Assembly (NCBI GenBank): GCA_025061245.1
Contig: JANZKD010000001.1
Location: forward strand, 1 to 32,214
Length of the DNA: 32,214 nt
Direction: 5' to 3'
Source: Candidatus Culexmicrobium profundum
GTDB lineage: Archaea; Thermoproteota; Methanomethylicia; Culexarchaeales; Culexmicrobiaceae
Part shown: positions 108-22,595 of the stretch, piece after piece
Layout of the letters: each line of letters starts with the position of its first letter
Position numbering within the stretch: the stretch's first letter is position 1
Made by a program: the position numbers and the translations under genes
Notes under the pieces: generated by a model
What the model saw: only the letters and a program-made list of their open reading frames with translations
Told to the model about the DNA's origin: nothing
The model's database searches: none

Positions 108-437
108 TTGTGGGTTGAATTGCTGCTCTCAGCTCCTATCACTTTCATAATAATATTCGTAATACTCTACTTGGTTTATTACTCCGGTAAATACACTGCC
201 TTTAAGCATCAGCATACTGAGGCTGAGCTGGATCCATATGCTTGTGGTGAGGGACCTGACAAGTATCCTGCTGAGTATATTCAGATGAATGTCCAGCTGT
301 ATAGATTTGCAATGTACTTTACTATATTTGATGTTGCAGCTTTTCTCCTTGCAGTTTCAGTGAGTTCACCTATTTTGGTGTTAGCATTATACATTGCAGT
401 TATGATTGCTGCATTAATTTTACTTCCGAAAGGGTGA
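108..437 (+). CDS. nuoA: NuoA/ND3-like membrane subunit of a complex-I-like/group 4 hydrogenase complex
   Basis: TTG start preceded by AAGGTGA (94-100). Three hydrophobic helices. DPYACGEGP...YFTIFDVAAFLL resembles the NuoA YECGF...FDVE signature. First gene of a tightly packed operon. Confidence 0.8.
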   Translation: MWVELLLSAPITFIIIFVILYLVYYSGKYTAFKHQHTEAELDPYACGEGPDKYPAEYIQMNVQLYRFAMYFTIFDVAAFLLAVSVSSPILVLALYIAVMIAALILLPKG

Positions 438-441
438 GATT

Positions 442-876
442 ATGGTTTCAATAATTGGGTGGAGTAGGATTAGAAGTCCATGGATCCTCTATATGGGGAC
501 TGGTCATTGTAATGCATGTGATATAGAAGTCCTAGCGGTATTGGCTCCTAGATTTGATGTTGAAAGATTCGGTATCTTATTGAAAGGGAGTCCTAGACAT
601 GCAGATGTCCTTGTTGTTACTGGTGCCGTTTCAAGGCAAACTGCACCAAGACTTAAGAGGATATATGAGCAGATGCCTAATCCTAAATTTGTGATTGCTG
701 TGGGTACCTGTGCTTGTTCAGGTGGTGTTTATTGGGGTTGCTATAATGTCTTAGGAGGAATTGATAAGGTTATTCCTGTTGATGTCTATATACCTGGTTG
801 CCCTGTTAGGCCTGAGGCTGTAATTCAAGGTGTAGCTAAGTTATTGGCTAAACTTCAGGGTGGAGGGAAGAAATAA
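442..876 (+). CDS. nuoB: NuoB-like / group 4 [NiFe]-hydrogenase small subunit (one [4Fe-4S])
   Basis: Motifs GHCNACDIE, GTCACSGG and IPGCPVRPE. The first motif is CxxC as in Mbh/Ech/Hyc small subunits, rather than the tandem CC of complex I NuoB. Confidence 0.9.
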   Translation: MVSIIGWSRIRSPWILYMGTGHCNACDIEVLAVLAPRFDVERFGILLKGSPRHADVLVVTGAVSRQTAPRLKRIYEQMPNPKFVIAVGTCACSGGVYWGCYNVLGGIDKVIPVDVYIPGCPVRPEAVIQGVAKLLAKLQGGGKK

Positions 877-1352
877 TGTCTAAGTCTACTTCGAAGGAAG
901 AATTCATTGCACATGAGCTTAAGAGTAACTTTGGAGATGTAATATCGGAGTTAAAGGTTACTGGGCCGAGGAGAGTTTATGTTACTGTTCCTCCTGAGTC
1001 GCTTCGCGATATTCTACTTTTCCTAAAGAATATGTTTAATGCTAGACATATTGTTACAATTACTGGAATTGATATGATGAAGTCTTTTGAATTAATTTAT
1101 CATATAGCCGTGCCAGGTGAGCATATTAGATCAATTTTAGTTAATGTTAAAACTCATATTCCACGCGATAATCCCACTATGCCTTCAGTTGTTGACATAC
1201 TGCCAGGTGCAACTCTATATGAACGTGAAGTTCATGATTTACTGGGTATTGTTTTTGAAGGACATCCGAATCTTGAAAGATTAATCCTACCTGATGACTG
1301 GCCTGAAGATGAGTTTCCATTAAGAAAGGATTGGAAACCTAAGGAGGTATGA
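876..1352 (+). CDS. nuoC: NuoC-like (30 kDa) subunit
   Basis: YEREVHDLLGIVFEGHPNLERLILPDDWPEDEFPLRKDW matches the NuoC family C-terminal signature. Start overlaps the nuoB stop and its stop overlaps the nuoD start. Confidence 0.85.
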   Translation: MSKSTSKEEFIAHELKSNFGDVISELKVTGPRRVYVTVPPESLRDILLFLKNMFNARHIVTITGIDMMKSFELIYHIAVPGEHIRSILVNVKTHIPRDNPTMPSVVDILPGATLYEREVHDLLGIVFEGHPNLERLILPDDWPEDEFPLRKDWKPKEV

Positions 1353-2533
1353 TGATGTCTATATATAGGATTCCTGTAGGTCCTCAACACCCGGCGATTA
1401 AGGAAGGTTTTCAATGGAACTTTAAATTGGATGGTGAAGTAATCGTTGATGTTACACCTAGATTGGGCTTTGTGCATAGAGGTATTGAGAAGGGAATGGA
1501 GTTAAGGTCATGGGTTCAAGGAATATATCTTGCTGAAAGAATTTGTGGTATTTGCAATACTCCTCACACCACTTGCTATTGTCTTGCAGTAGAGCAGTTA
1601 TATGATGTTGAAGTTCCCAAGAGAGCTCAATATCTAAGAATTATCATCAATGAATTGAACAGGATTCACAGCCACCTTCTCTGGATAGGAGTTTTAGGTA
1701 TGGAAATTGGCTTTATGACGTATTTCATGTATGTATGGAGAGATAGGGAAAGAGTGATGGATATAGTTGAACTAATAACTGGCAATAGAGTTACGATGTC
1801 AATGAACATGATTGGTGGAGTGGTTTACGATATAACTCCGCCAATGGAAGGAATTATTAGAAGGGGACTAGATTATCTTGAGGAAAGAACCAAGTATTAT
1901 AAAGAGGTTCTTTTAAATGAGCCAACTATTCGGGCTAGAACTGAGAATGTAGGTGTGCTTAGTAAGTCTGATGCTATAGATTTATGTGCAGTTGGTCCAA
2001 CTTTGAGAGGTTCTGATGTAAAGAGTGATGCACGTTTTGATGAGCCCTATTCTTCTTATGATGAAATTTCATTTAACTTAGTAACTTACCCCTACTGTGA
2101 TGTTTATGCACGTGCCCTTGTTAGGGCTGATGAGACACTTGAATCAATTAAAATAATTAGAGAATGTCTAGATAAGATGCCTAGTGGGCCAATTAAAGTT
2201 AGATTAAAACGGACTCCTCCTCCTGGTGAAGCTGTAGCAAGAGTTGAAGCTCCAAGAGGAGAATTGCTACATTATGTTAAATCTGATGGGAAGGAAAAGC
2301 CCTATAGAGTTAAAATGAGGACACCGACACTTGCAAATATACCTGCAACCTGTGAAATGTTGAAGGGTTACTATATAGCAGATATCCCTGCAATTATAGC
2401 TAGCATTGATCCATGCTACTGTTGTACTGAACGAATGCTTTTCATAGACATAAATAGTGGCAAAAGTTGGGTATGGACTGATAGTGAGCTTAGGAGGTAT
2501 AGTTTAAAGTATTATCGTGAGAGGAGGAAGTAG
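1349..2533 (+). CDS. nuoD: NuoD-like / group 4 [NiFe]-hydrogenase large subunit with intact Ni-Fe ligand motifs
   Basis: HRGIEKG...RICGICNTPH (aa 64-73, nt 1538-1567) fits RxCGxCxxxH. DPCYCCTER (aa 354-362, nt 2408-2434) fits DPCxxCxx[HR]. A 32-aa tail follows the Arg. Confidence 0.9.
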   Translation: MMMSIYRIPVGPQHPAIKEGFQWNFKLDGEVIVDVTPRLGFVHRGIEKGMELRSWVQGIYLAERICGICNTPHTTCYCLAVEQLYDVEVPKRAQYLRIIINELNRIHSHLLWIGVLGMEIGFMTYFMYVWRDRERVMDIVELITGNRVTMSMNMIGGVVYDITPPMEGIIRRGLDYLEERTKYYKEVLLNEPTIRARTENVGVLSKSDAIDLCAVGPTLRGSDVKSDARFDEPYSSYDEISFNLVTYPYCDVYARALVRADETLESIKIIRECLDKMPSGPIKVRLKRTPPPGEAVARVEAPRGELLHYVKSDGKEKPYRVKMRTPTLANIPATCEMLKGYYIADIPAIIASIDPCYCCTERMLFIDINSGKSWVWTDSELRRYSLKYYRERRK

Positions 2534-3487
2534 ATGATGAATGTTTTGTATTATTTATTTCGAGTTTTGATTTATCCTGGATTTTTGTTTATTTCGGCAT
2601 TGGCATTTGTGTTTGAGTGGATTGATAGGAAAGCTCATGCACACTTCCAAAATAGAATTGGTCCTCTATATGCTGGACCACATGGTTTTCTACAGCCTCT
2701 AGCTGATTTTATAAAGTTAATGGCTAAAGAAGATTTTACTCCAACATGGGCAAATCCAGTATTCTTCAACATTACTCCAGTATTGGCTGCAACACTTCCT
2801 GTTTTTGCTTCATTCTACATTCCATTTACAGGCATGCCTGTTCTGCCTCCGTTTGAAGGGGATCTAGTGCTTGTTTTGACTTTGACTACCTTCTTTACAA
2901 TAACTGCTTTCTTGGCAGGATGGTTTTCATCTAATAGATTTAGCTCTGTGGGTGCTATTAGAGTCGTTCTCCAATTTTTAGGCTATGAAATTCCAATGTT
3001 TATTTCTTTGGGCTCAGCAGCTATTGCTGCTGGCTCTCTTTCAATAACAAAGATTGCTAATAGCCAAGTTATACCATTTGCTATTTTGCAGCCTTTAGGT
3101 TTCGCAATTTACATTATAGCTCTTCAAGCAGAGTTGGAGAAGATCCCATTCGATATTCCTGAGGCTGAAAGTGAAATTGTTGCTGGATGGTTAACTGAAT
3201 TTGCAGGTAGGAAACTGGCTTTCTTTAGGTTATCAGAGGATTTAAGACTAGTTTTAGGTGCTGGCTTGGCAACAGCGGTTTTCCTTGGTGGTGGAAGTGG
3301 TGCTATTCTTCCACCAATAGTTTGGTTCTTGATAAAGATGGTGATAGTAGTTCTTATTGCAACTTCGTTGAGAACTGTTTTCGCCAGGTTGAAGATAGAT
3401 CAGGTTGTTAGAGGTGCATGGAAGTATCTGCTGCCCTTAGCTTTACTTCAATTGTTGATAACTAAAATCTTATTGGTGGTGATGTAG
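2534..3487 (+). CDS. nuoH: NuoH/ND1-like membrane subunit
   Basis: QNRIGPLYAGPHGFLQPLADFIKL and PEAESEIVAGWLTEFAG signatures of NuoH/HycD/MbhM. Multi-TM. Starts immediately after the nuoD stop. Confidence 0.9.
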   Translation: MMNVLYYLFRVLIYPGFLFISALAFVFEWIDRKAHAHFQNRIGPLYAGPHGFLQPLADFIKLMAKEDFTPTWANPVFFNITPVLAATLPVFASFYIPFTGMPVLPPFEGDLVLVLTLTTFFTITAFLAGWFSSNRFSSVGAIRVVLQFLGYEIPMFISLGSAAIAAGSLSITKIANSQVIPFAILQPLGFAIYIIALQAELEKIPFDIPEAESEIVAGWLTEFAGRKLAFFRLSEDLRLVLGAGLATAVFLGGGSGAILPPIVWFLIKMVIVVLIATSLRTVFARLKIDQVVRGAWKYLLPLALLQLLITKILLVVM

Positions 3488-3832
3488 ATGGCGATGCTTA
3501 GGGAGATTTGGAGACATTTCTTTAAAAAGCCTGTAACCGTTAAGTATCCATTTGAAAAACTTGAGCCTGCTGAAAGATATAGGGGAAGGCATGAATTTTA
3601 TATTGATAGATGTGTTGGCTGCGGGTTATGTGCGAAAGAGTGTCCTGCTCTTGCAATAGAGATGGTACCAAGTGATAAGACTGTTGGTGGTAAGAAGCCT
3701 GTTTTCTATTTAGACAGATGTATTTTCTGTCAGCAGTGTGAACGAATTTGCCCTAGAAATGCTATTAAGCTAACGAAGTTCTATGAGCTTGCTGCATATG
3801 ATAAAAGTGAATTGGTACTTGACATTTCCTAG
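3488..3832 (+). CDS. nuoI: NuoI-like 2x[4Fe-4S] ferredoxin subunit
   Basis: Two CxxCxxCxxxCP motifs (CVGCGLCAKECP, CIFCQQCERICP). Starts directly after the nuoH stop. Confidence 0.9.
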   Translation: MAMLREIWRHFFKKPVTVKYPFEKLEPAERYRGRHEFYIDRCVGCGLCAKECPALAIEMVPSDKTVGGKKPVFYLDRCIFCQQCERICPRNAIKLTKFYELAAYDKSELVLDIS

Positions 3833-3898: not shown

Positions 3899-5179
3899 AT
3901 GAAGATGATTGCAGATTTACACTTACATTCACATTATAGCGCTGCAACCAGTCCCGATATGACTATCCCTAAAATAGCGTATTATGCCAAAATTAAGGGA
4001 CTGAAAATTATTGGTACAGGTGATGCTTTTAATCCTTCCTGGCTTAGAGAGTTAAAATTAACTTTAGAGGAATCGTCGTATCCTGGGTTGTATTCTCCTT
4101 TAACTCCTGTTGAGGATGTATTTTTTATCATGCAATCTGAGGTTGGAACCATATTTGAGTTTGAGGGTAAGGTTAGACGTGTACATCATGTAATTTTAAT
4201 GCCGAATATTGAAGTTGCAGAGCAGATTTCTGACATTCTATCCTTTTATGGTAACGTTTCTTCTGATGGTAGACCCGTATTTAATATGCATCCTTCAGAG
4301 CTTGTTGAGATCGTCTTGGAGGTAGATGAGAATTGTTTAATATATCCTGCTCATGCGTGGACACCGTGGTGGAGCATTTTTGGTTCCTTTAGTGGCGTGG
4401 ATAGAATGGAGGATTGCTATGGTGACCAAGTTAAAAAGATATACGCATTAGAGACGGGGTTAAGTAGTGATCCGGAGATGAATTGGAGGGTGAGTGCCTT
4501 AGATAAATATGCTCTTGTTAGTGCCTCTGATGCTCATTCTCCATGGCCATTTAGATTGGGGAGAGAGGCCTGTGTCTTTGACTTTAAGAAGCCAAGCTAT
4601 TATGAACTTATTGATGCTATTAAACATAAGGATGCAAGTCGTTTTTTGATGACAATTGAGGTGGATCCTGCGTATGGCAAATATCATTGGTCTGGCCATC
4701 GGAAATGCGGTTTTGGCCCTATACCCCCTTCTGAAGCTGCTAAGCTGAATTACATTTGCCCTATTTGTGGAAGGAAATTAACTAAGGGTGTTGATGATCG
4801 AGTGGAGGAATTAGCAGATAGACCTAAAGGTTTTAGACCTGAGAAGGCAATTCCCTACATAAAATTATTGCCTCTCCAAGAACTTATTGCAACAGTTTTA
4901 GGAATAAGTCCATTCAATGTTAGACGTTTATACACTGGAAAGGTTTGGGAAGAATATCTTAAGCTTATACATAAACTGGGACCGGAATATAGAGTTGTTC
5001 TAGATGCACCATTAGATGAAATTGCAAAGGTTACATCAAGTGGGATAGCTAAGGCAATAGCTAAGCTAAGGAGTAATAGTCTTAAAGTTATTCCGGGATA
5101 TGATGGTGTATATGGTAAAATAATATTTTTTGAGGATAAGGAAGATCAATTAGATTTAAAGAAGTTTATTTCCTATTAG
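3899..5179 (+). CDS. PHP-domain nuclease, probable endonuclease Q (EndoQ) family
   Basis: N-terminal DLHLHSHYS PHP metal motif, SASDAHS, internal zinc-ribbon CPICGRKLTKGVDDRV, and about 426 aa, as in archaeal EndoQ. Assigned from memory of family motifs, not a search. Confidence 0.6.
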   Translation: MKMIADLHLHSHYSAATSPDMTIPKIAYYAKIKGLKIIGTGDAFNPSWLRELKLTLEESSYPGLYSPLTPVEDVFFIMQSEVGTIFEFEGKVRRVHHVILMPNIEVAEQISDILSFYGNVSSDGRPVFNMHPSELVEIVLEVDENCLIYPAHAWTPWWSIFGSFSGVDRMEDCYGDQVKKIYALETGLSSDPEMNWRVSALDKYALVSASDAHSPWPFRLGREACVFDFKKPSYYELIDAIKHKDASRFLMTIEVDPAYGKYHWSGHRKCGFGPIPPSEAAKLNYICPICGRKLTKGVDDRVEELADRPKGFRPEKAIPYIKLLPLQELIATVLGISPFNVRRLYTGKVWEEYLKLIHKLGPEYRVVLDAPLDEIAKVTSSGIAKAIAKLRSNSLKVIPGYDGVYGKIIFFEDKEDQLDLKKFISY

Positions 5180-5841
5180 GATTCTTTCTTTACTAGGAAT
5201 TCTCTCCATCTACCATCTCTTAGTCGTCGGATAACTCCTTTCCATCCTTCTTGATCTACAATGTCTGCGATTATCATCCAATCTATTTTGAGTAGTGCTA
5301 CTGTAATTATTATCAGAAATATTATTGAAGCAATTGCCCCGTATATACTTCCACCCAACATTAATCCTAGGATATTCACAAATGTCTTACCGAATACTGC
5401 TATGAACATGCTTAAAGCTATTTTACCTGCTAGACATGCTATTAGGAATTTGAAGAAACTGTATCTAATTAATCCTAGTGGAATGATTACTATGTCATCT
5501 GGTGATGGTGTAATCGTAAATACGAATACAGCTAATGCTCCATATTTATCAAGTAATTGTCTTAAGCGAGCTATCCTATACTCTTTTTCCTCTCCTATGA
5601 GTTTTCCACTTCCGAAACTGAATATGTATACGATTACTTTACCTACTGTGCCTCCTATTCCGCTAATAATGCCTAGTATTACTGGTTCGACTGGAAGGTA
5701 TGCTGCCATGTAAAATATTGCGACAAGATATGGTATTGGAATAAAGGGTATTAAGTTTCCTAGAACGGACACTATAAATGCGCCTAGGTATCCATGTTCA
5801 ACTACTATTTGTATTAACCATTTCTCTAGATTTTCAAGCAA
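5176..5841 (-). CDS. DedA/SNARE-associated (VTT domain) family membrane protein
   Basis: About 220 aa polytopic protein with a DedA-like layout (GYLGAFIVSVLGN.IPFIP, ITPSPDD). Convergent with the EndoQ-like gene, with a 4-nt overlap. Confidence 0.7.
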   Translation of the reverse strand: MLENLEKWLIQIVVEHGYLGAFIVSVLGNLIPFIPIPYLVAIFYMAAYLPVEPVILGIISGIGGTVGKVIVYIFSFGSGKLIGEEKEYRIARLRQLLDKYGALAVFVFTITPSPDDIVIIPLGLIRYSFFKFLIACLAGKIALSMFIAVFGKTFVNILGLMLGGSIYGAIASIIFLIIITVALLKIDWMIIADIVDQEGWKGVIRRLRDGRWREFLVKKES

Positions 5842-5994
5842 TCAAATTTCACTCCATAACTTCTCCAACGCTGTTTAAATTTGTACTTTATGATATTTAG
5901 CTCTTAATGTTTAAGAGACTGGAAAAGCTTTTAAAGTGTTAAAAGAAACTTCATTATCGCCATGAATCTTTCGTTATAAAGCGGGGGCAGAGAT

Positions 5995-6252
5995 TTGGAG
6001 TTTGCGTCGATTGTATCCTTACTTTTGGGTATACTTATAGTGGCTTTTGCAGTATTGGCTATTGAAATAAAGAACATAACTCATGCAATACTTTCATTAT
6101 GTGCTTTTAGTATAATTATTGCAATAGCCTTCATATTGTTAAATGCTCCATATGTTGCTGTTTTTCAACTTGCAATTTATGCTGGTGCTGTTACTGTTCT
6201 ATTTCTCATTACTATTATGTTAACTAAGAAGGAGGAGGTAGAGTTGCCATGA
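5995..6252 (+). CDS. nuoJ: NuoJ-like subunit, N-terminal part (split nuoJ)
   Basis: TTG start after a GGGGGCAGAG purine run. Three TM helices. VAVFQLAIYAGAVTVLFLITIML resembles the NuoJ Q..VY.GA..VLF signature. Confidence 0.7.
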   Translation: MEFASIVSLLLGILIVAFAVLAIEIKNITHAILSLCAFSIIIAIAFILLNAPYVAVFQLAIYAGAVTVLFLITIMLTKKEEVELP

Positions 6253-6527
6253 AGTTGAATGAAATTATAGGAGCAATTACAGCTCTAATACTTGCCTACT
6301 TTCTAGCTAATCTTCTAACCTCCGGCTTCGCAGAATTAGGGCTCTTTCCCTATGCTGGAAGGGCATTTTGGCTCACACCACCAGGAACAAATTTCTATCA
6401 AATCGGTCAAGCTGTTGGACAGTTTCTATGGAGGCTAAGATCTATTGACGTCTTAGCCCAAGTTCTTGTTCTATTTTCATCGGCACTTGGCGTTGTATGT
6501 TTGCTTAGGGAGGAGAAGGAAAAATGA
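6249..6527 (+). CDS. NuoJ-like subunit, C-terminal part (split nuoJ)
   Basis: 4-nt overlap with the previous ORF. The terminal helix RSIDVLAQVLVLFSSALGVVCLL resembles the last NuoJ helix (FE.aS.LLL.A.iGA). Confidence 0.55.
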   Translation: MKLNEIIGAITALILAYFLANLLTSGFAELGLFPYAGRAFWLTPPGTNFYQIGQAVGQFLWRLRSIDVLAQVLVLFSSALGVVCLLREEKEK

Positions 6528-6841
6528 GTTCTCCACTCTTCACCTTTATGGCTACTTCTGCAGTTTTACTTGCAGTTGGCTTATATGGGCTAATGGTTAA
6601 GAGAAACATGATTAGATTGATAATTTCACTTGAGATTCTAGTTAGTGCTGCGAATTTAAATTTCATAACTTTCTCAGCGTTCAGATCACTGGGTCTAGTT
6701 GATCCACTAGCACATACTTACACAATTATCATCATCTCTATAGAAGCCTGTGTAATTGGTGTAGCCTTGGCTTTCGTTATAAATGCATATAAGCATTATA
6801 AGACTCTTGATGTAACTAAGTTGAAGAAGTTGAGGTGGTAG
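6524..6841 (+). CDS. nuoK: NuoK/ND4L/MrpC-like subunit
   Basis: 105 aa, 3 TM. LYGLMVKRNMIRLIISLEILVSAANLNFI is the NuoK-family signature, including the membrane Glu. Confidence 0.85.
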   Translation: MSSPLFTFMATSAVLLAVGLYGLMVKRNMIRLIISLEILVSAANLNFITFSAFRSLGLVDPLAHTYTIIIISIEACVIGVALAFVINAYKHYKTLDVTKLKKLRW

Positions 6842-8346
6842 CCGTGTTTGCAATAGTTTTGCCTATATTGACTTTGGTTTTCTTTGCAATTGTCACCCCC
6901 TTCCTAAGTAAAATTACTAGGAGTGTTGGTTTAAAGAATGTTGAGAGTTACTGGACAACTTTGGGCTTTTTGCTGGCTTTGATTGTTGATTTCCGTTTGC
7001 TAGGTCCGATTGCTGAGAATAATGTTTTAGTGTACATTCCATACCCTACTTCAAAGCCGCCGGTAGCAGGTTTCTTTGCAGTTGATTGGCTAGGTTTCTT
7101 TGTTTCACTAATTTTCATTTTAGTTGGTTTTCTATCTGCAATACATTCCATCGACTACATGAGTCATGACACTGGTCTTGATCAATATTATGCATTGCTA
7201 TTATTGATGGTTGCTGGAATGGTTGGACTTGCATTTGCAGGTGACTTTTTGACTTTCATTGTTTTCTGGGAGTTAATGAGTATTTCGTCATATTGTCTCG
7301 TTGGCTTTAGAAAGCATCTCTGGGAACCTATAGAGGCTGGATTTAAGTATCTTATAATGAGTGCTTCTGGTTCAGCATTGGTTTTATTTGCCATGTCGAT
7401 ATTATATGGTCTAACTGGTTCACTTAGCTTTGCACATATAGCTTCTTCAATGATGTATGCTGACTCATCACAGCTAATTTACTTAGTGGTGGCTTTACTA
7501 GTTGCTGGTTTTGGAGTTAAGGCAGCTGCTGTTCCATTCCACTTCTGGCTTCCTGACGCTCACCCTGCAGCACCAAGCCCAATTAGCGCTATGCTTTCAG
7601 GTGTTGTAATAAAGACTGGTGTTTATGCGCTTATTAGGACTTTATACCTATTCTTTACTCCCTCACTAGTAGATTTCACCATGATTATGGCAATACTCTC
7701 TGTTGTAACTATGACTGTTGGCAATATTATGGCGCTCCTGCAAAAGGATATAAAGAGGCTACTTGCCTATTCAAGTATTGGTCAAATAGGATATATTCTA
7801 TTAGCAATGTCGTTGGGTACTCCTTTCGGCTTGACTGGTGCTATACTTCACATATTTAACCATGCTCTTATGAAGGGTCTTGCTTTTCTCTGTGCTGGTG
7901 CAATAATTCATGTAGTTGGGACAAGGAATATTGATGAATTAATAGGCGTTGGAAAGAAAATGCCAATTACATCCATTGCATTCAGCATTTCACTATTGTC
8001 CTTAAGTGGTGTGCCATTCCTTAACGGTTTTATAAGTAAATATATGATCTTTGCAGCTGCAATTGAAGCCCACGCCTACCTTCTTACAGTTATCGGTCTT
8101 CTTAATAGCGGGCTGTCTGTTGTATATTACTTAAGGCTGATTCAGCTTTTAATACTTAGAGAGCCGAAGGGTAAAGCCGCTACTGCAAGGGAAGCTTCGA
8201 TTCTAATTTTAATTCCACTCGTAGTTATGGCACTTCTATGTGTTCTGTTTGGAATATGGCCGGAGCCAGTTTACAGGATGGCTGAAGCTGCTGCTAATTC
8301 TGCTTTTGCAAAAATTGAATACATACAATCTGTAATTAAGCCGTGA
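6835..8346 (+). CDS. nuoN: Antiporter-like subunit (NuoN/MrpD/MbhH family)
   Basis: GTG start overlapping the nuoK stop (alternative GTG at 6844). FWELMSISSY (TM5 Glu), GFGVKAAAVPFHFWLPDAH (TM7 Lys), KRLLAYSSIGQIGY. Confidence 0.85.
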   Translation: MVAVFAIVLPILTLVFFAIVTPFLSKITRSVGLKNVESYWTTLGFLLALIVDFRLLGPIAENNVLVYIPYPTSKPPVAGFFAVDWLGFFVSLIFILVGFLSAIHSIDYMSHDTGLDQYYALLLLMVAGMVGLAFAGDFLTFIVFWELMSISSYCLVGFRKHLWEPIEAGFKYLIMSASGSALVLFAMSILYGLTGSLSFAHIASSMMYADSSQLIYLVVALLVAGFGVKAAAVPFHFWLPDAHPAAPSPISAMLSGVVIKTGVYALIRTLYLFFTPSLVDFTMIMAILSVVTMTVGNIMALLQKDIKRLLAYSSIGQIGYILLAMSLGTPFGLTGAILHIFNHALMKGLAFLCAGAIIHVVGTRNIDELIGVGKKMPITSIAFSISLLSLSGVPFLNGFISKYMIFAAAIEAHAYLLTVIGLLNSGLSVVYYLRLIQLLILREPKGKAATAREASILILIPLVVMALLCVLFGIWPEPVYRMAEAAANSAFAKIEYIQSVIKP

Positions 8347-8348
8347 TT

Positions 8349-9278
8349 TTAACTTAATACCTTCTCTTTCAATCTACAAAATGCACATAGGTCTTGCGAA
8401 GTAGGATAGCCACATTTAATACATTCATTAATTTTTTGATCTACCTTGTCTGAATAGTGGCTCTCTAATGCTTTATAGATTTTATTTGTAAAGTTTCTTA
8501 ATAGTGAGAGTTTTGTTCCTGGTCTGATTTCTTCTAGTTGCATTATTATTTTCTTGAATTTTAGTATTGGTGAGTCTTGTGCATAGGGGCATGGTATTTC
8601 AATGTATTTTAAATTATTTATTAGACAGTAGATTTGAGTTTCTAAGTCTGAGATTTCACATAGTGGTTTTATTCTGGCTATTAGTTTTTCATGTATTTTT
8701 GGTAAGTGTGGTTTTCTTTTGAGGAGCATGTTAATGTTTCCGTTGATGTAGTTTAACATTAAAAATGTAACTTCATCATCTAGGGTGTGGCCTGTTGCTA
8801 TTTTGTCTGCATTAATTTCAAGTGCATATTCATTTAATATTCTTCTTTTGATTAATCCGCAAATTGAGCATGGAGGTCTTCTAATTTTTCTTACAGCTTC
8901 ATTGATTGTGAATCCATATTTCTCTTTAATGGAGATAACCTTGTTTTCAATCTTTATTGTTGAGCATATTTGATTGAAGATTTCTCTACTTTTTGTTGAG
9001 TATTCATTGATTCCTAAGTCGATATGCACTGCCATCAACTCGTTGGTATCTTTGAGTATTTCGGTTAATGCATGTAGCATTGCAATACTATCTTTTCCTC
9101 CTGAAACTCCAATTAATATCTTTTCATTGTGTTTAATCATCTGGTATTTCTTTATTGTTTTTGCTACTCTGTTTATGAAGTATGTTTTAAAGTGTTCTTT
9201 GCATAATCTGATGCCTGCATATTTCAGGGATATGAATGCTTTTGACTTGCACATTGAACATTTACTCTTTTTTCTCAT
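8349..9278 (-). CDS. TtuA/NcsA-family tRNA 2-thiolation PP-loop ATPase
   Basis: PP-loop SGGKDS, GHTLDDE, Fe-S ligands PPCSICG and PCPYA, and N- and C-terminal zinc fingers (CSMC...CKEH; CIKCG...CAFC). I start at the internal ATG 9278, which has AGGTGA upstream. The track ORF extends to 9386 through an implausible leader. Confidence 0.8.
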   Translation of the reverse strand: MRKKSKCSMCKSKAFISLKYAGIRLCKEHFKTYFINRVAKTIKKYQMIKHNEKILIGVSGGKDSIAMLHALTEILKDTNELMAVHIDLGINEYSTKSREIFNQICSTIKIENKVISIKEKYGFTINEAVRKIRRPPCSICGLIKRRILNEYALEINADKIATGHTLDDEVTFLMLNYINGNINMLLKRKPHLPKIHEKLIARIKPLCEISDLETQIYCLINNLKYIEIPCPYAQDSPILKFKKIIMQLEEIRPGTKLSLLRNFTNKIYKALESHYSDKVDQKINECIKCGYPTSQDLCAFCRLKEKVLS

Positions 9279-9400
9279 TTGTTTCTCACCTTTCCTTAAT
9301 CTGGTTCTATCCTGATATTTATACTCAAGCGCAAAAATTAAAAGTATCATCATATCCAAAGACATAAGGCACAGGCTGTATAGCATTTGGCGGTGTACCT

Positions 9401-11203
9401 ATGTTTCGTCCAGTTGAAATGAAGAAAATTTACATAGTAACGCTCTCTAGACATTTCAATAAGGTAATGGAAGGTCTAGCTAAGTTAGGAGTTGTACATT
9501 TAGCTGATGCTAGAGAGACATTTGAAAAATTAGAGTCTGTTATTGAAGATTTGAGAGATAGGTTGAGAGAGGTTCCGCTTTTTGTTAATGAGTTGAAGAC
9601 GTTACTAGATAAAGTTGATGTTTTAATGAAAAAATTAGAGGTAGAAGATAAATATGTCAAGTTAAGTAAGTTTAAAGGTTTAAGTGTAGAGGATGCTTTA
9701 AAGGTTATAGAAGAGAGAGTTGATGCAATTAATTCAGAGTATGGGGAATTTGTTAAAAAGGCTGAAGAACTTAGTGAGTTGGAGTCGCGACTGAAGGAGT
9801 TGGAGTCAAAGTTTAAAGAAGTTGAACATTTACCTGACACTTCTTCTGTTAAAGTGAAATTGAGAGAAGAATTAGAGTTGGTTAGTGCAGAATTTCAAAT
9901 GAAGATGCAACTTTTGAGAAACTTTCTTGAGTCATTGAGGGAAAAGCATGCTGATTTCTTACTTGAGGCTAAAACGTTTATTGAAATGTATTTGCCGCTT
10001 GAGGAGTCTAAGGTTTTAACTGTGCATACTCCGCTTTTATCTTTTATTGAGGGATTTGTTCCTGTTACTGAAATGGAGAAAGTGAAGTCAATAGTAGAGG
10101 ACTTAACTGATGGTGAGGTCTTAGTGCTGGTTTCTGATTTAGATGAGCATGAGGAAGCTCCTGTTGTGCTTAGGACTCCAAAGTTCATAAAGCCTTTTGA
10201 AACATTGATTAAGACTTATGATGTTCCTTCCTATCATGAGATTAATCCTTCACTTGTAGTTGCGATAACTTTCCCCCTTATATTTGGGTTGATGTTCGCT
10301 GATGTTGGGCATGGATTATTATTGGCGTTATTTGGCGTAGCTATGATTTATGCTAAAAAGAAGGGTTTACCTCCTTCAGAGATGATTCGACTTATAGCTT
10401 CGGGTGCGGAGGTTTATATACTATGTGGAGTAGCTGCAATGTTTGGTGGATTGATGTTTGGTGAAATGTTTGGTTTCCATATGTATGAGATATTAGGTAA
10501 AGCATTTGAGCATCCTCCATTGGGCTTTATATTGGAGAGCATTCCAGGTATTGGGAAAGTGTTTAGTCCTTTGGAGGATCCAATGAAGATGTTTAAGTTG
10601 TCTCTTATTGTTGGTGCGATACATATTGGAATAGGGTTGACTTTAAGAATTCTAAATGAAGTTCTTCTTGGAGAGTATAAGGAGGCATTCTTTGGCTCTG
10701 TTTGTTGGCTTTGGTTTTACGTGGGGTTCATATATTTGGTTTTGTTTAAATTTAAGCTTAATATAGATTTGTGGATTGGAAACACCATACCCTCTCCTCA
10801 GAATCCTCTTCCAATAGGATTTATTGCAATTGTTCTTCCAATAATCATAATGTTTGCAGGAATGGTGAAGCTTGAAGGTTTCATAGACGGGTTTGCACAT
10901 GTCTTTGAGGCAATGATAAGCTCGTTGTCACATACAGTTTCTTATGGACGTATATTAGCTCTTTCTCTTTCACATGGAATTCTAAGTAAATTGTTGACAG
11001 ATGCTTTCCATGCATTGGGTCTTCTGGGGTATCCTATTTTGGCTATTGGAACAATTTTCATGGTAATGGCATTAGAGGGTTTAGTTTCGTTTACACACGT
11101 ACTTAGGTTGACTTGGGTTGAATTTGGTTTCAAGTATTTCCATGGAGGGGGAATGGAGTTTAAACCTTTATCTTTTGGAGTGAATCTTTATGAAGGTGAA
11201 TGA
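9401..11203 (+). CDS. atpI: A/V-type ATPase subunit I (a), full length
   Basis: 600 aa. N-terminal coiled-coil cytoplasmic domain, PSYHEINPS...FPLIFGLMFADVGHG, and SHTVSYGRILALSLSHG with the essential stator Arg. Confidence 0.9.
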   Translation: MFRPVEMKKIYIVTLSRHFNKVMEGLAKLGVVHLADARETFEKLESVIEDLRDRLREVPLFVNELKTLLDKVDVLMKKLEVEDKYVKLSKFKGLSVEDALKVIEERVDAINSEYGEFVKKAEELSELESRLKELESKFKEVEHLPDTSSVKVKLREELELVSAEFQMKMQLLRNFLESLREKHADFLLEAKTFIEMYLPLEESKVLTVHTPLLSFIEGFVPVTEMEKVKSIVEDLTDGEVLVLVSDLDEHEEAPVVLRTPKFIKPFETLIKTYDVPSYHEINPSLVVAITFPLIFGLMFADVGHGLLLALFGVAMIYAKKKGLPPSEMIRLIASGAEVYILCGVAAMFGGLMFGEMFGFHMYEILGKAFEHPPLGFILESIPGIGKVFSPLEDPMKMFKLSLIVGAIHIGIGLTLRILNEVLLGEYKEAFFGSVCWLWFYVGFIYLVLFKFKLNIDLWIGNTIPSPQNPLPIGFIAIVLPIIIMFAGMVKLEGFIDGFAHVFEAMISSLSHTVSYGRILALSLSHGILSKLLTDAFHALGLLGYPILAIGTIFMVMALEGLVSFTHVLRLTWVEFGFKYFHGGGMEFKPLSFGVNLYEGE

Positions 11204-11275
11204 TTTTTTCTAAATAAGAAGTCTTATAAGGAGATTGAATTTTTTATTGATAGTAGAAAAATGGAGGTGTGATGG

Positions 11276-11743
11276 TTGGACCCAACTCTTATGGGTATGC
11301 TTGGTATAGTATTTGCTAGTTGTGCTTCTATTGGTGGAGCGGCGTATGGAATAATTACTGCTGGTGTGTCTATGGCTGGTGCAGGTACTGAGAGGCCTGA
11401 AATAGTCACTAAGGCTTTATTGGCAGTAGTACTGGCTGAAGCTATTGGTATTTATGGGCTGTTGACTTCAGTAATGTTAATTACTAAGATGGACGTTCTA
11501 ATAGCTTCTTATGATGCTGCTGTTAAGGGGTTTTTTGCTGGCTTAATAATGGGAATCTGCGGCTTAGTTGCTGCATTAGCTATTGGTTATACAGGCTCTG
11601 CTATGGCTGGTGCAGGTACTGAGAGGCCTGAAATAGTCACTAAGGTGTTATTGTCTGTAGTACTGGCTGAGGCATTAGCGATTTATGGATTGTTGATTTC
11701 GATAATGGTGATAAATACCATTGGAGTTGCAGTTCCACATTAG
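11276..11743 (+). CDS. atpK: A/V-type ATPase proteolipid subunit K (c), tandem-duplicated 4-TM form with two carboxylates
   Basis: TTG start 6 nt after GGAGGTG. Two hairpin halves each carry AGAGTERPEIVTK..L..VVLAEA..IYGLL. Confidence 0.9.
   Translation: MDPTLMGMLGIVFASCASIGGAAYGIITAGVSMAGAGTERPEIVTKALLAVVLAEAIGIYGLLTSVMLITKMDVLIASYDAAVKGFFAGLIMGICGLVAALAIGYTGSAMAGAGTERPEIVTKVLLSVVLAEALAIYGLLISIMVINTIGVAVPH
11370..11414 (+). repeat. Copy 1 of a 45-nt perfect direct repeat inside atpK
   Basis: CTATGGCTGGTGCAGGTACTGAGAGGCCTGAAATAGTCACTAAGG is identical to 11601-11645. The offset is 231 nt (77 codons). Confidence 0.95.
11601..11645 (+). repeat. Copy 2 of the 45-nt perfect direct repeat inside atpK
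   Basis: Identical to 11370-11414. The flanking bases differ on both sides, and partial similarity continues downstream. Confidence 0.95.
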
Positions 11744-13430: not shown

Positions 13431-13478
13431 TCAAACCGCTCCTAATTTTTTGTTAAAACCCTTATGAACTCATTAAGT

Positions 13479-16235: not shown

Positions 16236-18398
16236 ATGATAATATATTCTCCCTGGCTATGTTGGCTCATACCAATTGTAGGAGCGATGCTAACTCCCTT
16301 TATAGCTAGAATAAGTGAGAAGGCTCGAGATTATACTGCTGTTTTATTTGGTTTTTTAGCTGCTGTTATGGCTGCATCTATGATACCAGCGATAATGGCT
16401 GGTAAATTTTATATTCCAGGTAAGGGTTTGGTTCCGATTCCTGCTGATTGGAAGTATGAGTGGATCATTGTTCCTGGAGCTAAGCTTAATGTTGGTGTGC
16501 TTGTTGATCCATTAAGTGTTTTAGTGGCTAATGTTGTAGCTTGGATTTCCTTTTTAATTCTAATTTACAGCTTGGGCTATATGCATGGAGAGGAGGGTTT
16601 AACTAGGTATTGGTTCTTCATGAACTTCTTTATTGGAAACATGCTTCTCCTCGTAATGTCTGATAATATTCTTCAAATGTTATTTGGATGGGAGGGTGTT
16701 GGTTTATGCAGCTATCAGCTCATTGGTTTTTGGTATAGAGATGAGCGTAAGAGATGGGTTGGAGATGTTCCACCTTCACATGCAGGTATGAAGGCTTTCA
16801 TAATGACTAGGGCTGGAGATGTAGCTCTAATGATTGCTGCTTTCATAATATTTACTCAAGCTAAGACCTTTAATTTCATGGAACTTCAACAAAATCATGA
16901 ATGGATAGTTGAGTTGGCTAAGGTTGGTTTAATTGCACCAGTAGCATTATTTCTTTTTGGTGGTCCTATCGGTAAATCCGCTCAATTTCCATTACATGAA
17001 TGGCTTCCTGAGGCAATGGCTGGTCCAACTCCTGTTTCAGCTCTAATACATGCTGCTACCATGGTTAAGGCTGGTGTCTACTTTACTGCTAGAGTCTTCC
17101 CTATTTTCACTGAGAGCTTTAAGTTAGCTGCTGAGGGAGTTCATAACGGGTTCGAGGGAGTAATACTTACAGCCCAAAATCAATTCTTCCTAACTGTTGC
17201 GTGGATTGGTGCTTTTACAGCTTTTCTAGCTGCTTCTCAAGCTATGGTTGCTAGGGAGTTGAAGAAGGTTTTAGCTTATTCAACTGTTTCACAGATAGGC
17301 TATATGATGCTTGGTTTAGGTGCTGGTGGATTGGCTGGTGAACATGCTGCTAGTGGTTATGTTGCAGGTGTATTTCACTTGATGAGCCATGCTATATTCA
17401 AGGCGCTACTCTTCATGGCTGCTGGATCCGTTTTACATGCATGTGAGACAACTGATATGTTTGAGATGGGTGGTATTAGGAGGGAAATGCCAATTACATT
17501 TGCATGTATGCTCATTGGTGCTTTGTCATTGTCAGGAATTCCACCATTAAGTGGATTTTGGAGTAAGGAGGCTGTTTTTGGTGCATGTATAAAGTCTGGA
17601 CAATATTTATTGTTAGCTTTGGCTGCTATTACTGCTGCAATGACTTTCTTCTATAGTATTAGGATGATTAGTATAACTTTCTTGGGTAAGAAGAGTCATC
17701 ATTTGGAGGAGCTTGAACGTCATGGTCATCATGTACATGAAGTTCCATCTGTAATGTGGATTCCATATTTAATATTAGCTGTTGCTACTATTGGTATTGG
17801 TTTTATGGGTCCTATGTTTGAGCATATGTTAGAAGAGTTTCTTGAGCCATCCATATTCCCTCATCACGGTATACATTCATCGCTTCTCGCAATTTCAACT
17901 ACTGCTGAGCCTGCTGGTCCGCCAACCCAGTTGATGACTATGGTTATAACTGCTTCAATGCTTCTTCTTGGTGGAATTCCTGGTTATCTTATGTATGTTT
18001 CAAGGAGAGTAGATCCAGTAAAATTTGTGGATAGGTATGGTCTAAAGCCAATATATAATTTCTTGTGGAATCGATGGTATATGAACCCTACATACTATAA
18101 GGTCTTTGTATACTCTCTGATTGACTTGAGCTCTGTCCTATTTAAAAATCTCGAGAAGGCTGTGATTGACAAGGTTAACTATGTGGTTGCTAATGGAATT
18201 ATAAAAATGAGTGCAGGGTTGTTTAGAAGTTTAGAAGTGAAGGTAATTGATGGTGCAAATTATGCTTTAGCTAAGGCTGTGGTTGCCTTCTATAGGGTGT
18301 TTCGAAGAATTCAGACTGGAATTCTGTCGTACAATATGCTTGGAATAGTTTTTGGCCTCTTGGTTGTTGGTGCCTTACTTATTTTATTAGGACTATAA
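16236..18398 (+). CDS. nuoL: NuoL/ND5-like antiporter-like subunit with C-terminal lateral helix and anchor TM
   Basis: GWEGVGLCSY (TM5 Glu), GKSAQFPLHEWLPEAM (TM7 Lys), MKAFIMTRAGD. About 105 aa of amphipathic sequence (aa 591-695) is followed by a final TM (aa 696-720), as in NuoL helix HL plus TM16. Confidence 0.9.
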   Translation: MIIYSPWLCWLIPIVGAMLTPFIARISEKARDYTAVLFGFLAAVMAASMIPAIMAGKFYIPGKGLVPIPADWKYEWIIVPGAKLNVGVLVDPLSVLVANVVAWISFLILIYSLGYMHGEEGLTRYWFFMNFFIGNMLLLVMSDNILQMLFGWEGVGLCSYQLIGFWYRDERKRWVGDVPPSHAGMKAFIMTRAGDVALMIAAFIIFTQAKTFNFMELQQNHEWIVELAKVGLIAPVALFLFGGPIGKSAQFPLHEWLPEAMAGPTPVSALIHAATMVKAGVYFTARVFPIFTESFKLAAEGVHNGFEGVILTAQNQFFLTVAWIGAFTAFLAASQAMVARELKKVLAYSTVSQIGYMMLGLGAGGLAGEHAASGYVAGVFHLMSHAIFKALLFMAAGSVLHACETTDMFEMGGIRREMPITFACMLIGALSLSGIPPLSGFWSKEAVFGACIKSGQYLLLALAAITAAMTFFYSIRMISITFLGKKSHHLEELERHGHHVHEVPSVMWIPYLILAVATIGIGFMGPMFEHMLEEFLEPSIFPHHGIHSSLLAISTTAEPAGPPTQLMTMVITASMLLLGGIPGYLMYVSRRVDPVKFVDRYGLKPIYNFLWNRWYMNPTYYKVFVYSLIDLSSVLFKNLEKAVIDKVNYVVANGIIKMSAGLFRSLEVKVIDGANYALAKAVVAFYRVFRRIQTGILSYNMLGIVFGLLVVGALLILLGL

Positions 18399-20995: not shown

Positions 20996-21101
20996 TGTTG
21001 ATTTTATAAATTTGCATCATCTTGTTTAGCATAAATGTTTTATATGGTTAGTATAGACTGCATAATGCAATTAGTTGACGCTTAATTTGGGAGGTTGTCA
21101 T

Positions 21102-22595
21102 GTGACCGGCCCAGCAAATCTACTTGCTCAAATCTTGGTTGTACCCTTAATCTTTGTTCCAATAGCTTATTGCTCTAGTAAGCGTCTTGGTTGGAGAACT
21201 GGTTGGATTGCTTTTCTTCCATTAGCTTACACCACCCTTGTTACATTATACTTAGTGAACTATGTGTCGAAAAATGGAGTTGTTTTAGGAGTTTGGCCAC
21301 TAGCTCCATCAGTAGGTTTAAACTTTGGGTTGATGGCTGATGGTTTAAGTACACCAATTATATTTACAATAGCATTACTTTGTACTGTCGTTGCAATCTA
21401 CTCGATGCCTTATATGGAGCATAAGTTGGGTGAGTGTGGATCTGGTCATGGTGCCTATTATGCATTATATCTCCTGTATGCGGTCGGTATGCTTGGTACT
21501 GCTATGTCAACAAATTTGATTCAGTTTTACTTCTTCTGGGAATTGATGCTGGTGCCTTCGTGGGCTTTAATTAACATTTGGGGTTATGGTGAGAGAGAGA
21601 AGATAGCCCTAAAGTATTTCATTTATACTCATATTGGTGCATTGTCTCTACTTGCAGGTATATTGGCTGTTTATGCGGCCTTTGGAACCTTCGATATACC
21701 AGTACTATTGTCATTGGTTCATGAGGGTTCTCATTCAGTAGGATTTCTACGATGGGTTGTTTTGGCAATGTTTCTTGGATTTGCAGTGAAGATGGCTATT
21801 GTTCCTCTACATACATGGCTTCCCGATGCACATGCAGAGGCTCCTACTCCAATTAGTGCCCTCCTATCTCCTGCTATGATTGGACTTGGAGGCTATGCTT
21901 TAGTTAGATTAGCCTATATATTATTCCCTGAAGTTTTCGAGCAATTTAGCTTGGTATTTAGTGTTTTGGCTTTGATTACTATGATTTATGGTGGCATCAT
22001 GGCTTTGGCTCAGGACGATATAAAGAGATTATTAGCATATTCAAGTGTTTCTCAGATGGGATATTTATTGTTTGGAATTACAAGTAGTTATCCTCAAGGA
22101 ATTAGTGGTTCAATGTTTCACTATGTTAGTCATGGTACGTGTAAGGCTATTCTCTTCATGATGGCTGGTGCAATTATGCTTGAGACCCATGGTATACGTA
22201 GCATTAAGAGGCTTGGTGGCTTAGCTAGTAAAATGCCCTTAACTACGATATTTACTTTGATTGGCTTCTTAGGTATTGCTGGTACTCCTCCTCTTAATGG
22301 TTTTCAGAGTGAATGGTTAATTTTCACTGGGGCCTTTGCTGGAGCTATTGAAGCCCATAATGCAGTTCGATTACTGATAACAATTGTTGCATTGATGGGA
22401 ACTGTTTTGACTGCTGGATATGCCTTGTGGACTATTAGGAGAATATTCTTTGGACCACTACCTGAGCATTTAGATGAAGTTCATGAAGCTCCACTACTTG
22501 TAACTATTCCAATGTTTATCTTAGCGCTTGTCACAGTGGTTTTAGGTATTTATCCAACACCACTATTGAGGCTTCTTTCAATGTTCTTTGGCTAA
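21102..22595 (+). CDS. nuoM: Antiporter-like subunit (NuoM/ND4 family)
   Basis: FFWELMLVPSW (TM5 Glu), GFAVKMAIVPLHTWLPDAHAEAPTP (TM7 Lys), KRLLAYSSVSQMGY. The GTG at 21102 is 6 nt after GGGAGGT; the track ORF begins at TTG 21075. Confidence 0.85.
   Translation: MTGPANLLAQILVVPLIFVPIAYCSSKRLGWRTGWIAFLPLAYTTLVTLYLVNYVSKNGVVLGVWPLAPSVGLNFGLMADGLSTPIIFTIALLCTVVAIYSMPYMEHKLGECGSGHGAYYALYLLYAVGMLGTAMSTNLIQFYFFWELMLVPSWALINIWGYGEREKIALKYFIYTHIGALSLLAGILAVYAAFGTFDIPVLLSLVHEGSHSVGFLRWVVLAMFLGFAVKMAIVPLHTWLPDAHAEAPTPISALLSPAMIGLGGYALVRLAYILFPEVFEQFSLVFSVLALITMIYGGIMALAQDDIKRLLAYSSVSQMGYLLFGITSSYPQGISGSMFHYVSHGTCKAILFMMAGAIMLETHGIRSIKRLGGLASKMPLTTIFTLIGFLGIAGTPPLNGFQSEWLIFTGAFAGAIEAHNAVRLLITIVALMGTVLTAGYALWTIRRIFFGPLPEHLDEVHEAPLLVTIPMFILALVTVVLGIYPTPLLRLLSMFFG

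Follow-up and report, generated by a model that had tools for sequence, protein, structure and literature searches.

A NuoD homologue of Candidatus Culexmicrobium profundum is probably the catalytic subunit of a complex I-like, energy-converting [NiFe] hydrogenase

Does the NuoD homologue encoded near the start of contig JANZKD010000001.1 of Candidatus (Ca.) Culexmicrobium profundum belong to a respiratory complex that reduces a quinone, or is it the catalytic subunit of a hydrogenase? Here, we analyzed positions 1 to 32,214 of this contig (assembly GCA_025061245.1; the whole stretch is referred to as the window), in which the initial annotation had noticed a NuoD homologue carrying both canonical [NiFe] ligand motifs, L1 and L2. 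We conclude, with a probability of roughly 0.85, that the open reading frame at 1349-2533 is the gene for the large, catalytic subunit of an energy-converting, membrane-bound [NiFe] hydrogenase of group 4 with an 11-subunit core similar to complex I and Fpo and no NADH or F420 input module. The enzyme would be of the type described as Fpo-like 11-subunit [NiFe] hydrogenase (Hfo), or subgroup 4g, and would operate by a ferredoxin:H+ mechanism. The gene and the elements on which this conclusion rests are:

1349..2533, plus strand: predicted [NiFe]-hydrogenase large (catalytic) subunit, NuoD homologue, 394 aa (Pfam PF00346, 1.1e-76; PF00374, 7.4e-14)
1403..1405, plus strand: codon of Glu19, which aligns with MbhL Glu21
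1538..1567, plus strand: L1 motif RICGICNTPH, aa 64-73, with the predicted ligands Cys66 and Cys69 (translation, alignments)
2408..2434, plus strand: L2 motif DPCYCCTER, aa 354-362, with the predicted ligands Cys356 and Cys359 and the extra Cys358 (translation, alignments)
2435..2530, plus strand: 32-aa C-terminal extension after Arg362 (alignment with the HycE tail)

On retranslation, RICGICNTPH and DPCYCCTER lie exactly at the amino acid and nucleotide positions initially given for them, and each pattern occurs only once in a six-frame translation of the whole window. With expected counts per protein, at the protein's own composition, of 2.5e-5 for L1 and 9.5e-5 for L2, an origin of the motifs by chance is ruled out. 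The start of the gene is uncertain by one or two codons, and residue numbers may shift by as much, because three consecutive ATG triplets (at 1349, 1352 and 1355) follow a GGAGG at 1343-1347 and are overlapped by the nuoC stop; the gene call for an identical sequence in another assembly (P0001) begins one Met later and gives 393 aa. Cys358 (nt 2420-2422) immediately precedes the fourth ligand, giving DPCxCC, where MbhL and HycE have Ser; an extra Cys at this position is present in 29/120 of the closest homologues, for example as DPCLCCTGR and DPCFCCMDR.

We searched all PDB sequences for solved relatives and read the informative columns from pairwise HMMER alignments. The large subunit matches MbhL of the Pyrococcus membrane-bound hydrogenase Mbh (6cfw_L; E 4.1e-84), HycE of the Escherichia coli formate hydrogenlyase (FHL; 7z0s_E; E 9.8e-75), Nqo4 of Thermus complex I (2fug_4; E 1.6e-69) and MbsL (6u8y_L; E 1.1e-61). 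RICGICNTPH aligns on RMCGICSFSH of MbhL and on the L1 motif RVCGICGFAH of HycE, and DPCYCCTER aligns on DPCLSCTDR and DPCYSCTDR, respectively; all four cysteines thereby fall, as originally proposed, in the NiFe ligand columns of two structurally solved group 4 enzymes. Nqo4 reads RMDYLH in the L1 columns. The column of Nqo4 Tyr87 is occupied by Gly67 in the query and that of Nqo4 His38, in the beta1-beta2 loop, by Ile17; that is, the two ligands of the quinone head group in Nqo4 are absent from the query, while all four cysteines are kept. Glu19 of the query, which we interpret as the Glu that relays protons in group 4 hydrogenases, stands in the column of MbhL Glu21, where NuoD-type relatives have Gly. 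The sulfane reductase Mbs is ruled out as the identity of this enzyme by the weaker match of MbsL and by the presence of all four cysteines in the query.

The fold is less informative than the ligand columns. An AlphaFold2 model built from the family alignment has a pLDDT (predicted local distance difference test) of 88.2 and a pTM (predicted template modeling score) of 0.89, with pLDDT below 50 for residues 1-18 only. When this model was compared with the PDB using Foldseek, complex I 49-kDa subunits, HycE and MbhL scored nearly equally (TMq 0.78-0.83), and the highest identity was to MbhL (42%). Because hydrogenase and NuoD subunits have the same fold and near-equal TMq values, the fold does not discriminate between them.

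The ligand set is a property of the family. Among the 120 best homologues (56-100% identity), which come from Methanomethylicota (78-80% identical to the query), Thermoprotei, Hodarchaeota and Baldrarchaeia (58-59%) and Bathyarchaeia (56-58%), L1 and L2 are kept in 120/120. An alignment of 50 family sequences with a mean column identity of 66% is invariant at E19, R64, C66, G67, C69, H73, the EAPRG motif, D354, P355, C356, C359 and R362. From an exhaustive HMMER search of 1.84 billion cluster representatives, we compared 150 50%-cluster representatives; the complete E/R-C-G-C-H/D-P-C-C-R pattern is present in the best 47 without exception, and NuoD-type sequences (G, T, R, D, Y ... V, E, R; without a tail) appear only from about rank 68. 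A neighbour-joining tree places the query in a clade that is dominated by four-Cys proteins and also holds MbhL and HycE. The genuine NuoD proteins of two genome relatives (L006 and L007; 40% identity) read RTDYLS / DLVIPEIDR and RPNIAD / DYWPVEADR in the motif columns and end at the motif, without cysteine ligands and without a tail, bearing out the earlier statement that genuine complex I-type D subunits lack these cysteines. Given the ligand-column alignment and the grouping with Cys-bearing relatives in ranks and tree, we found neither cysteines displaced from the ligand columns nor a grouping with cysteine-containing non-hydrogenases, the two outcomes that had been named as arguing against a hydrogenase.

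Two further kinds of homologue were seen. P0168, P0181 and P0245, in the neighbour-joining clade of the query, have lost most Cys ligands (FCYF, CGHG and GGCG) and keep tails of 29-47 aa; they look like independent degenerations of the Ehr-like kind. P0142 and P0159 are homologues of ~936 aa in which the large-subunit domain is C-terminal only (query residues 66-378 on residues 610-923), which suggests that they are multi-subunit fusion proteins.

A second hallmark is the C-terminal extension. In E. coli, HycI removes the C-terminal peptide of HycE after nickel insertion; many group 4 enzymes, though not all of them, carry such an extension for maturation by an endopeptidase. The query tail, MLFIDINSGKSWVWTDSELRRYSLK, aligns with the peptide cleaved from HycE, MTVVDVRKKKSKVVPYKELERYSIE. 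A tail of 25-41 aa is present in 120/120 close homologues, with WxW in 101/120, and NuoD-type relatives stop at the motif. We predict that a HycI-type endopeptidase removes the query tail after Ni insertion. In the large-subunit relative at 61% identity (L009, from a Thermoprotei metagenome-assembled genome [MAG]), hycI, hypF, hypC, hypE and hypD adjoin the hydrogenase cluster, and the HypF, HypC, HypE and HypD proteins score above curated NCBIfam cut-offs. HycI and Hyp genes of Culexarchaeia genomes appear in a table of Kohtz et al. 2022 (PMC9723716). We count physical linkage to hyp genes for L009 alone because the AIRS-family gene located after nuoI in the Baldrarchaeia locus L011 resembles methanogenesis marker 2 (365.3 bits; cut-off 365) and is ruled out as hypE; the Bathyarchaeia locus L010 also has an AIRS-domain gene beside its cluster.

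The genes around the large subunit encode the remainder of a complex I-like machine:

108..437, plus strand: NuoA/FpoA-like membrane subunit, 109 aa, first gene of the operon (PF00507 Oxidored_q4, 1.6e-7)
442..876, plus strand: predicted hydrogenase small subunit, NuoB/MbhJ-like, 144 aa (PF01058, 8.9e-36)
876..1352, plus strand: NuoC/30-kDa-like subunit, 158 aa (PF00329, 4.6e-34); its stop overlaps the large-subunit start
2534..3487, plus strand: NuoH/FpoH-like membrane subunit, 317 aa (PF00146, 1.1e-87)
3488..3832, plus strand: NuoI-like 2x[4Fe-4S] ferredoxin-type subunit, 114 aa (Pfam Fer4 families; two CxxCxxCxxxCP motifs)
3899-5179, plus strand: EndoQ-like gene (TIGR00375 family, Pfam MJ0043_C), not part of the complex
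5176-5841, minus strand: DedA/VTT membrane-protein gene, not part of the complex
5995..6252, plus strand: NuoJ N-terminal half (J1), MbhD-like, 85 aa (PF00499, 6.4e-16, profile positions 1-64 of 146; PF13244 MbhD, 7.8e-11)
6249..6527, plus strand: probable second NuoJ half (J2), MbhE-like, 92 aa (weak full-length PDB match to MbhE, 6cfw_E, E=0.13)
6524..6841, plus strand: NuoK-like subunit, 105 aa (PF00420, 1.4e-22)
6835..8346, plus strand: antiporter-like subunit, NuoN/MrpD-like, 503 aa (PF00361; NCBIfam MrpD-like, NuoM and NuoN)
16236..18398, plus strand: solitary NuoL-like antiporter subunit with a long C-terminal region, 720 aa (TIGR01974 NuoL, 517 bits against a cut-off of 407.5)
21075..22595, plus strand: solitary NuoM-like antiporter subunit, 506 aa (TIGR01972 NuoM, 355.8 bits against 263.8)

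Thus, all 11 Nuo/Fpo core subunits (A-D and H-N) are encoded in the window, non-contiguously and with a weak assignment for J2: the 92-aa protein has no match in Pfam or NCBIfam, the position of its gene is conserved in relatives, and we tentatively regard it as the second half of NuoJ, similar to MbhE. The NuoN-like protein has no NCBIfam match above a curated cut-off (285.9 bits for the NuoN subfamily TIGR01770 against 332.6); FWELMS and GVKAAAVPFHFWLPDAH motifs are seen in its translation, and the signature TM5 Glu and TM7 Lys motifs are present in all three antiporter-like subunits. Upstream of the nuoA-like gene lie the unrelated housekeeping genes ProRS and PfkB. Genes for NuoEFG, FpoF/FpoO, HdrB/C (CCG-domain) and FrhB are absent from the window and its flanks. 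The NuoI-like subunit is the presumed docking and entry site for ferredoxin.

The small subunit is also of the hydrogenase type. Its best solved relative is MbhJ (6cfw_J; 3e-47), and GHCNACDIE of the query aligns on GSCNGCDIE of MbhJ as CxxC; complex I and NDH-1 small subunits show a 3-residue gap in the alignment and a tandem CC. Judging from its sequence, Cys23, Cys26, Cys90 and Cys120 would bind one proximal [4Fe-4S] cluster. The affinities of the membrane subunits differ from those of the catalytic subunits: the NuoH-like protein matches NdhA/NuoH at ~2e-45 versus 8e-24 for MbhM and 4e-17 for HycD, and the NuoL-like protein matches NdhF (6hum_F) at 1.4e-104, aligned to aa 635 including the long C-terminal region, versus 2e-37 for MbhH. 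Because B and D are nearest to Mbh and H and L are nearest to complex I/NDH-1, we describe the enzyme as a hydrogenase-type catalytic head on a complex I-type membrane arm.

How this layout varies among relatives bears on which genes belong together. The nearest species-level genomes are Ca. Culexmicrobium cathedralense (L003; 79%), a Guaymas 'Methanomethylicota' MAG (78%) and two archaeal MAGs (76-77%). L003-L005 have the gene order of the window (nuoABCDHI, EndoQ, DedA, nuoJ1-J2-K-N and TtuA), including the EndoQ/DedA insertion; L002, a Guaymas contig of 3.6 kb, spans nuoA to nuoI only. In L009, the hycI-hypF-hypC-hypE-hypD genes and nuoM-like and nuoL-like genes adjoin nuoABCDHI-J1-J2-K-N. 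We consider this linkage the strongest new indirect evidence for a real NiFe maturation and for the membership of L and M, and from this synteny we infer that the NuoL-like and NuoM-like proteins of the window are members of the hydrogenase complex. In L011 (59%; positions 5388-8512 and 12738-13751), genes for HdrB-like (CCG), HdrC-like, LplA and GcvH proteins lie between J-K-L-M and nuoABCDHI. L010 (57%; positions 8247-11334) has only B, D and I, followed by an FrhB/FdhB-like gene, with no membrane subunits and with NikR nearby; the locus may encode a soluble derivative of this catalytic module that is linked to F420. The gene content of L010 and L011 shows that the family is modular.

The enzyme type is not new. 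Loh, Herve and Brune 2021 (PMC7886697) defined Hfo as HydDB subgroup 4g, described near-identical clusters in Ca. Methanomethylicus and Pyrodictium, and proposed ion-driven ferredoxin reduction with H2 for the Hfo of acetogenic Bathyarchaeia. The supplement of Kohtz et al. 2022 (PMC9723716) places a group 4g catalytic gene on the L003 contig; going by the contig name and position given there, this gene would be that of L003. The same study predicts a fermentative role for the Culexarchaeia 4g enzyme, which would oxidise ferredoxin, produce H2 and translocate ions. Appler et al. 2024 (bioRxiv 10.1101/2024.07.04.601786) predicted complex I-like complexes with a catalytically active NiFe 'NuoD' in Asgard archaea. 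The locus described here adds one more member to this published family, and our finding therefore amounts to recognising, correctly, a known type of enzyme in a further organism.

Compared with these systems, the window is closest to Hfo and to the Culexarchaeia enzyme. It shares with Hfo the same 11 Nuo/Fpo-homologous subunits, the lack of FpoFO/NuoEFG and a D subunit with L1 and L2. However, the clusters of Loh et al. carry all 11 genes, while those of the window are not contiguous: the EndoQ-like and DedA genes split ABCDHI from J1-J2-K-N, nuoL and nuoM are solitary, 8 and 13 kb downstream, and NuoJ is split into two genes. The large subunit of the Culexarchaeia 4g hydrogenase in L003 is 79% identical and the synteny is the same in L003-L005; in the parts of Kohtz et al. 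2022 drawn on here, a complex I-like subunit set is not discussed. The 4g gene listed on the contig of this 79% counterpart, together with the Methanomethylicota homologues, suggests that the query is of the Hfo/subgroup 4g type.

Mbh of Pyrococcus furiosus (group 4d, PDB 6CFW) provides the best solved matches, MbhL (42% identity) and MbhJ, with the same ligands, the same Glu and a small-subunit CxxC, and the split NuoJ resembles MbhD/MbhE. In contrast to Mbh, the window has no Mrp-type MbhA/B/C/F/G module, has three antiporter-like subunits instead of one, includes NuoA, and encodes NuoH-like and NuoL-like proteins much nearer to complex I/NDH-1 than to MbhM/MbhH. HycE (group 4a, PDB 7Z0S) shares L1, L2 and a homologous C-terminal tail; it differs by a fused NuoC-like N-terminal domain, and FHL has a formate dehydrogenase, HycB/F partners and another membrane arm, none of which is in the window. 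NuoD/Nqo4 of complex I and FpoD have the same fold (30-35% identity), operon logic and 11 core subunits, and the window's membrane subunits are most similar to those of these complexes. However, neither NuoD nor FpoD has the four Cys, Glu19 or the tail; both carry the His/Tyr quinone site, and NuoB has CC rather than CxxC. The Asgard complexes share the NuoBCDI peripheral arm, a catalytically competent NiFe NuoD and a complex I-like membrane arm. Unlike in L010, L011 and the HdrB-associated Ehd/Ehe, no HdrB/C, GcvH or FrhB partner lies beside the window's operon, and all three antiporter-like genes are present in the window. Ehd/Ehe was rejected as the identity of this enzyme because there is no hdrB or hdrC in the window or its flanks.

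The most likely function, based on sequence, is ferredoxin:H+ oxidoreduction coupled to ion translocation. We infer the metal content, ferredoxin partner, tail cleavage, ion pumping, direction and assembly of L and M with the operon-encoded core, as follows. The precursor would be matured by Hyp proteins, after which a HycI-type protease would trim it after Arg362, releasing the 32-residue tail. Reduced ferredoxin would dock at the NuoI-like 2x[4Fe-4S] subunit and pass electrons to the single [4Fe-4S] cluster of the NuoB-like subunit and on to a NiFe(CN)2CO centre with Cys66, Cys69, Cys356 and Cys359 as its ligands; there, protons arriving by way of Glu19 would be reduced, reversibly, to H2. 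The reaction would be coupled through the NuoH/A/J/K-like subunits to the antiporter-like N, M and L subunits, which would move H+ (or Na+) over the membrane. As for the physiological direction, we favour H2 evolution during fermentation. Ferredoxin has a potential of about -450 to -500 mV and the H+/H2 couple one of -414 mV, and the energy yield is small.

Several observations weigh against this interpretation. The structure search does not separate the two protein types (TMq 0.83 for hydrogenase versus 0.78-0.81 for NuoD), and the similarity to Nqo4 is not far below that to HycE. Mbh is a more distant relative of the NuoH-like and NuoL-like subunits than complex I/NDH-1 is, and in the window nuoL and nuoM each stand alone, unlinked to the operon. 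No hyp or hycI genes were found in the window or in the ~10 kb examined on either side (the downstream 10-kb flank was read from an identical contig). As of Loh et al. 2021 (PMC7886697), no subgroup 4g enzyme had been biochemically characterised. Lastly, because the step from ferredoxin to H2 yields little energy, a four-channel complex I arm is hard to drive toward H2; by our own reasoning from standard potentials, exceptions would be a very low H2 level or a reduced stoichiometry.

Automatic annotation favours a genuine quinone- or methanophenazine-reducing Nuo/Fpo-like complex. As the initial annotation had anticipated, the query scores 380.7 bits with the NCBIfam equivalog NF004739, 'NADH-quinone oxidoreductase subunit D', and passes its cut-off of 360, although the name would mislead; public labels of close homologues are split between NuoD and hydrogenase, and JGI and NCBI often use NuoD or 'NADH dehydrogenase subunit'. 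The affinity of the membrane subunits and a full-length match to FpoD (337.8 bits) point the same way. However, this match and that to TIGR01962 NuoD (343 bits) are both under their cut-offs of 600 and 459, respectively, Ile and Gly replace the quinone-site His and Tyr, the small subunit lacks a tandem CC, and the true NuoD relatives L006 and L007 are without Cys ligands and tail; we therefore regard it as extremely unlikely that the NuoD label is right. We consider it very improbable, if slightly less so, that the protein is a catalytically dead or repurposed relic of the Ehr kind, in which the cysteines serve structure or another metal and no H2 chemistry takes place. The ligand-losing P0168, P0181 and P0245 in the same clade and the lack of biochemical data for subgroup 4g are compatible with such a relic; against it stand the invariance of the four ligands, Glu19, Arg64, His73 and EAPRG across the 50 aligned sequences, the retention of the tail in all 120 homologues and the physical linkage of hycI and hypFCED to the L009 cluster.

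If the protein is a hydrogenase, its direction and the extent of its membrane arm are to be considered. The same enzyme could run in reverse, with H2 oxidation and ferredoxin reduction driven by the membrane potential, as Loh et al. proposed for the homologous 11-subunit complex; on thermodynamic grounds, a long arm with three antiporter-like subunits would suit an uphill, ion-consuming reaction better. Nevertheless, the nearest named genomes are Culexarchaeia, for which Kohtz et al. predict fermentative H2 production, and the window contains no Wood-Ljungdahl or CO2-fixation genes, making this reverse role rather unlikely. We are similarly doubtful of a short active complex (A, B, C, D, H, I, J, K and N) with a single antiporter-like subunit, in which nuoL and nuoM would serve another machine or join only conditionally. 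Unrelated genes do separate nuoL and nuoM from the operon and from each other, and the family varies in its modules, as in L010 (B-D-I with FrhB) and L011 (the HdrB/C-like insert). Yet there is no second nuo-like or mrp-like cluster in the window to take up L and M, in L009 the operon is immediately adjoined by L-like and M-like genes, all 11 genes are together in the Hfo clusters of Loh et al., and the long C-terminal region by which NuoL spans its M and N neighbours in complex I is retained in the NuoL-like protein. A more speculative idea, which we think very improbable, is that the antiporter genes are deliberately uncoupled (N in the operon; L and M solitary), so that short or long membrane arms could be mounted on one NiFe head, tuning the ions moved per H2 or switching between H2 evolution and ion-driven ferredoxin reduction. 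Such tuning would, if true, match the free energy of the reaction from ferredoxin to H2, which is very small and variable, and the enzyme would be an extant and adjustable intermediate between Mbh-type hydrogenases and complex I. We retain a complete 11-subunit, H2-evolving hydrogenase as the preferred reading.

The window holds other genes of energy metabolism and protein turnover. An A/V-ATPase gene set occupies 9401-11203 (plus strand), 11276-11743 (plus strand), 12369-13430 (minus strand) and 14069-15460 (minus strand); it includes two paralogues of subunit I that lie on opposite strands and measure 600 aa and, in the shorter copy, 463 aa. Also present are a C/AC39 subunit and an internally duplicated c/K subunit, in which GAGTERPEIVTK is found twice; there are no catalytic A/B genes in the window. 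At 26713-28311 (minus strand), a 532-aa protein with N-terminal and C-terminal hydrophobic segments and an HELVH motif gives weak peptidase M61/M9 matches only; we regard it as a probable extracellular metalloprotease that is anchored in the membrane and belongs to an unclassified family. A gene for a CofE-like F420-0:gamma-glutamyl ligase (PF01996) lies at 25962-26735 (minus strand). Because this CofE-like gene is present, the organism should use F420, yet there is no FpoF/FrhB gene near the hydrogenase.

What is new here is modest: the linkage of hycI/hypFCED and of nuoL/nuoM to the cluster in the 61% relative, and the split between the affinities of the catalytic and the membrane subunits. 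The practical value lies in annotation hygiene, namely in PGAP-type rules and JGI labels, as a NuoD label wrongly gives an anaerobic archaeon a quinone-dependent respiratory complex and hides its H2 metabolism. For the published family as a whole, the energetic question is how a full antiporter arm is coupled to a low-energy reaction. Among extant enzymes, hydrogenases of the complex I shape provide the clearest link from energy-converting hydrogenases to respiratory complex I.

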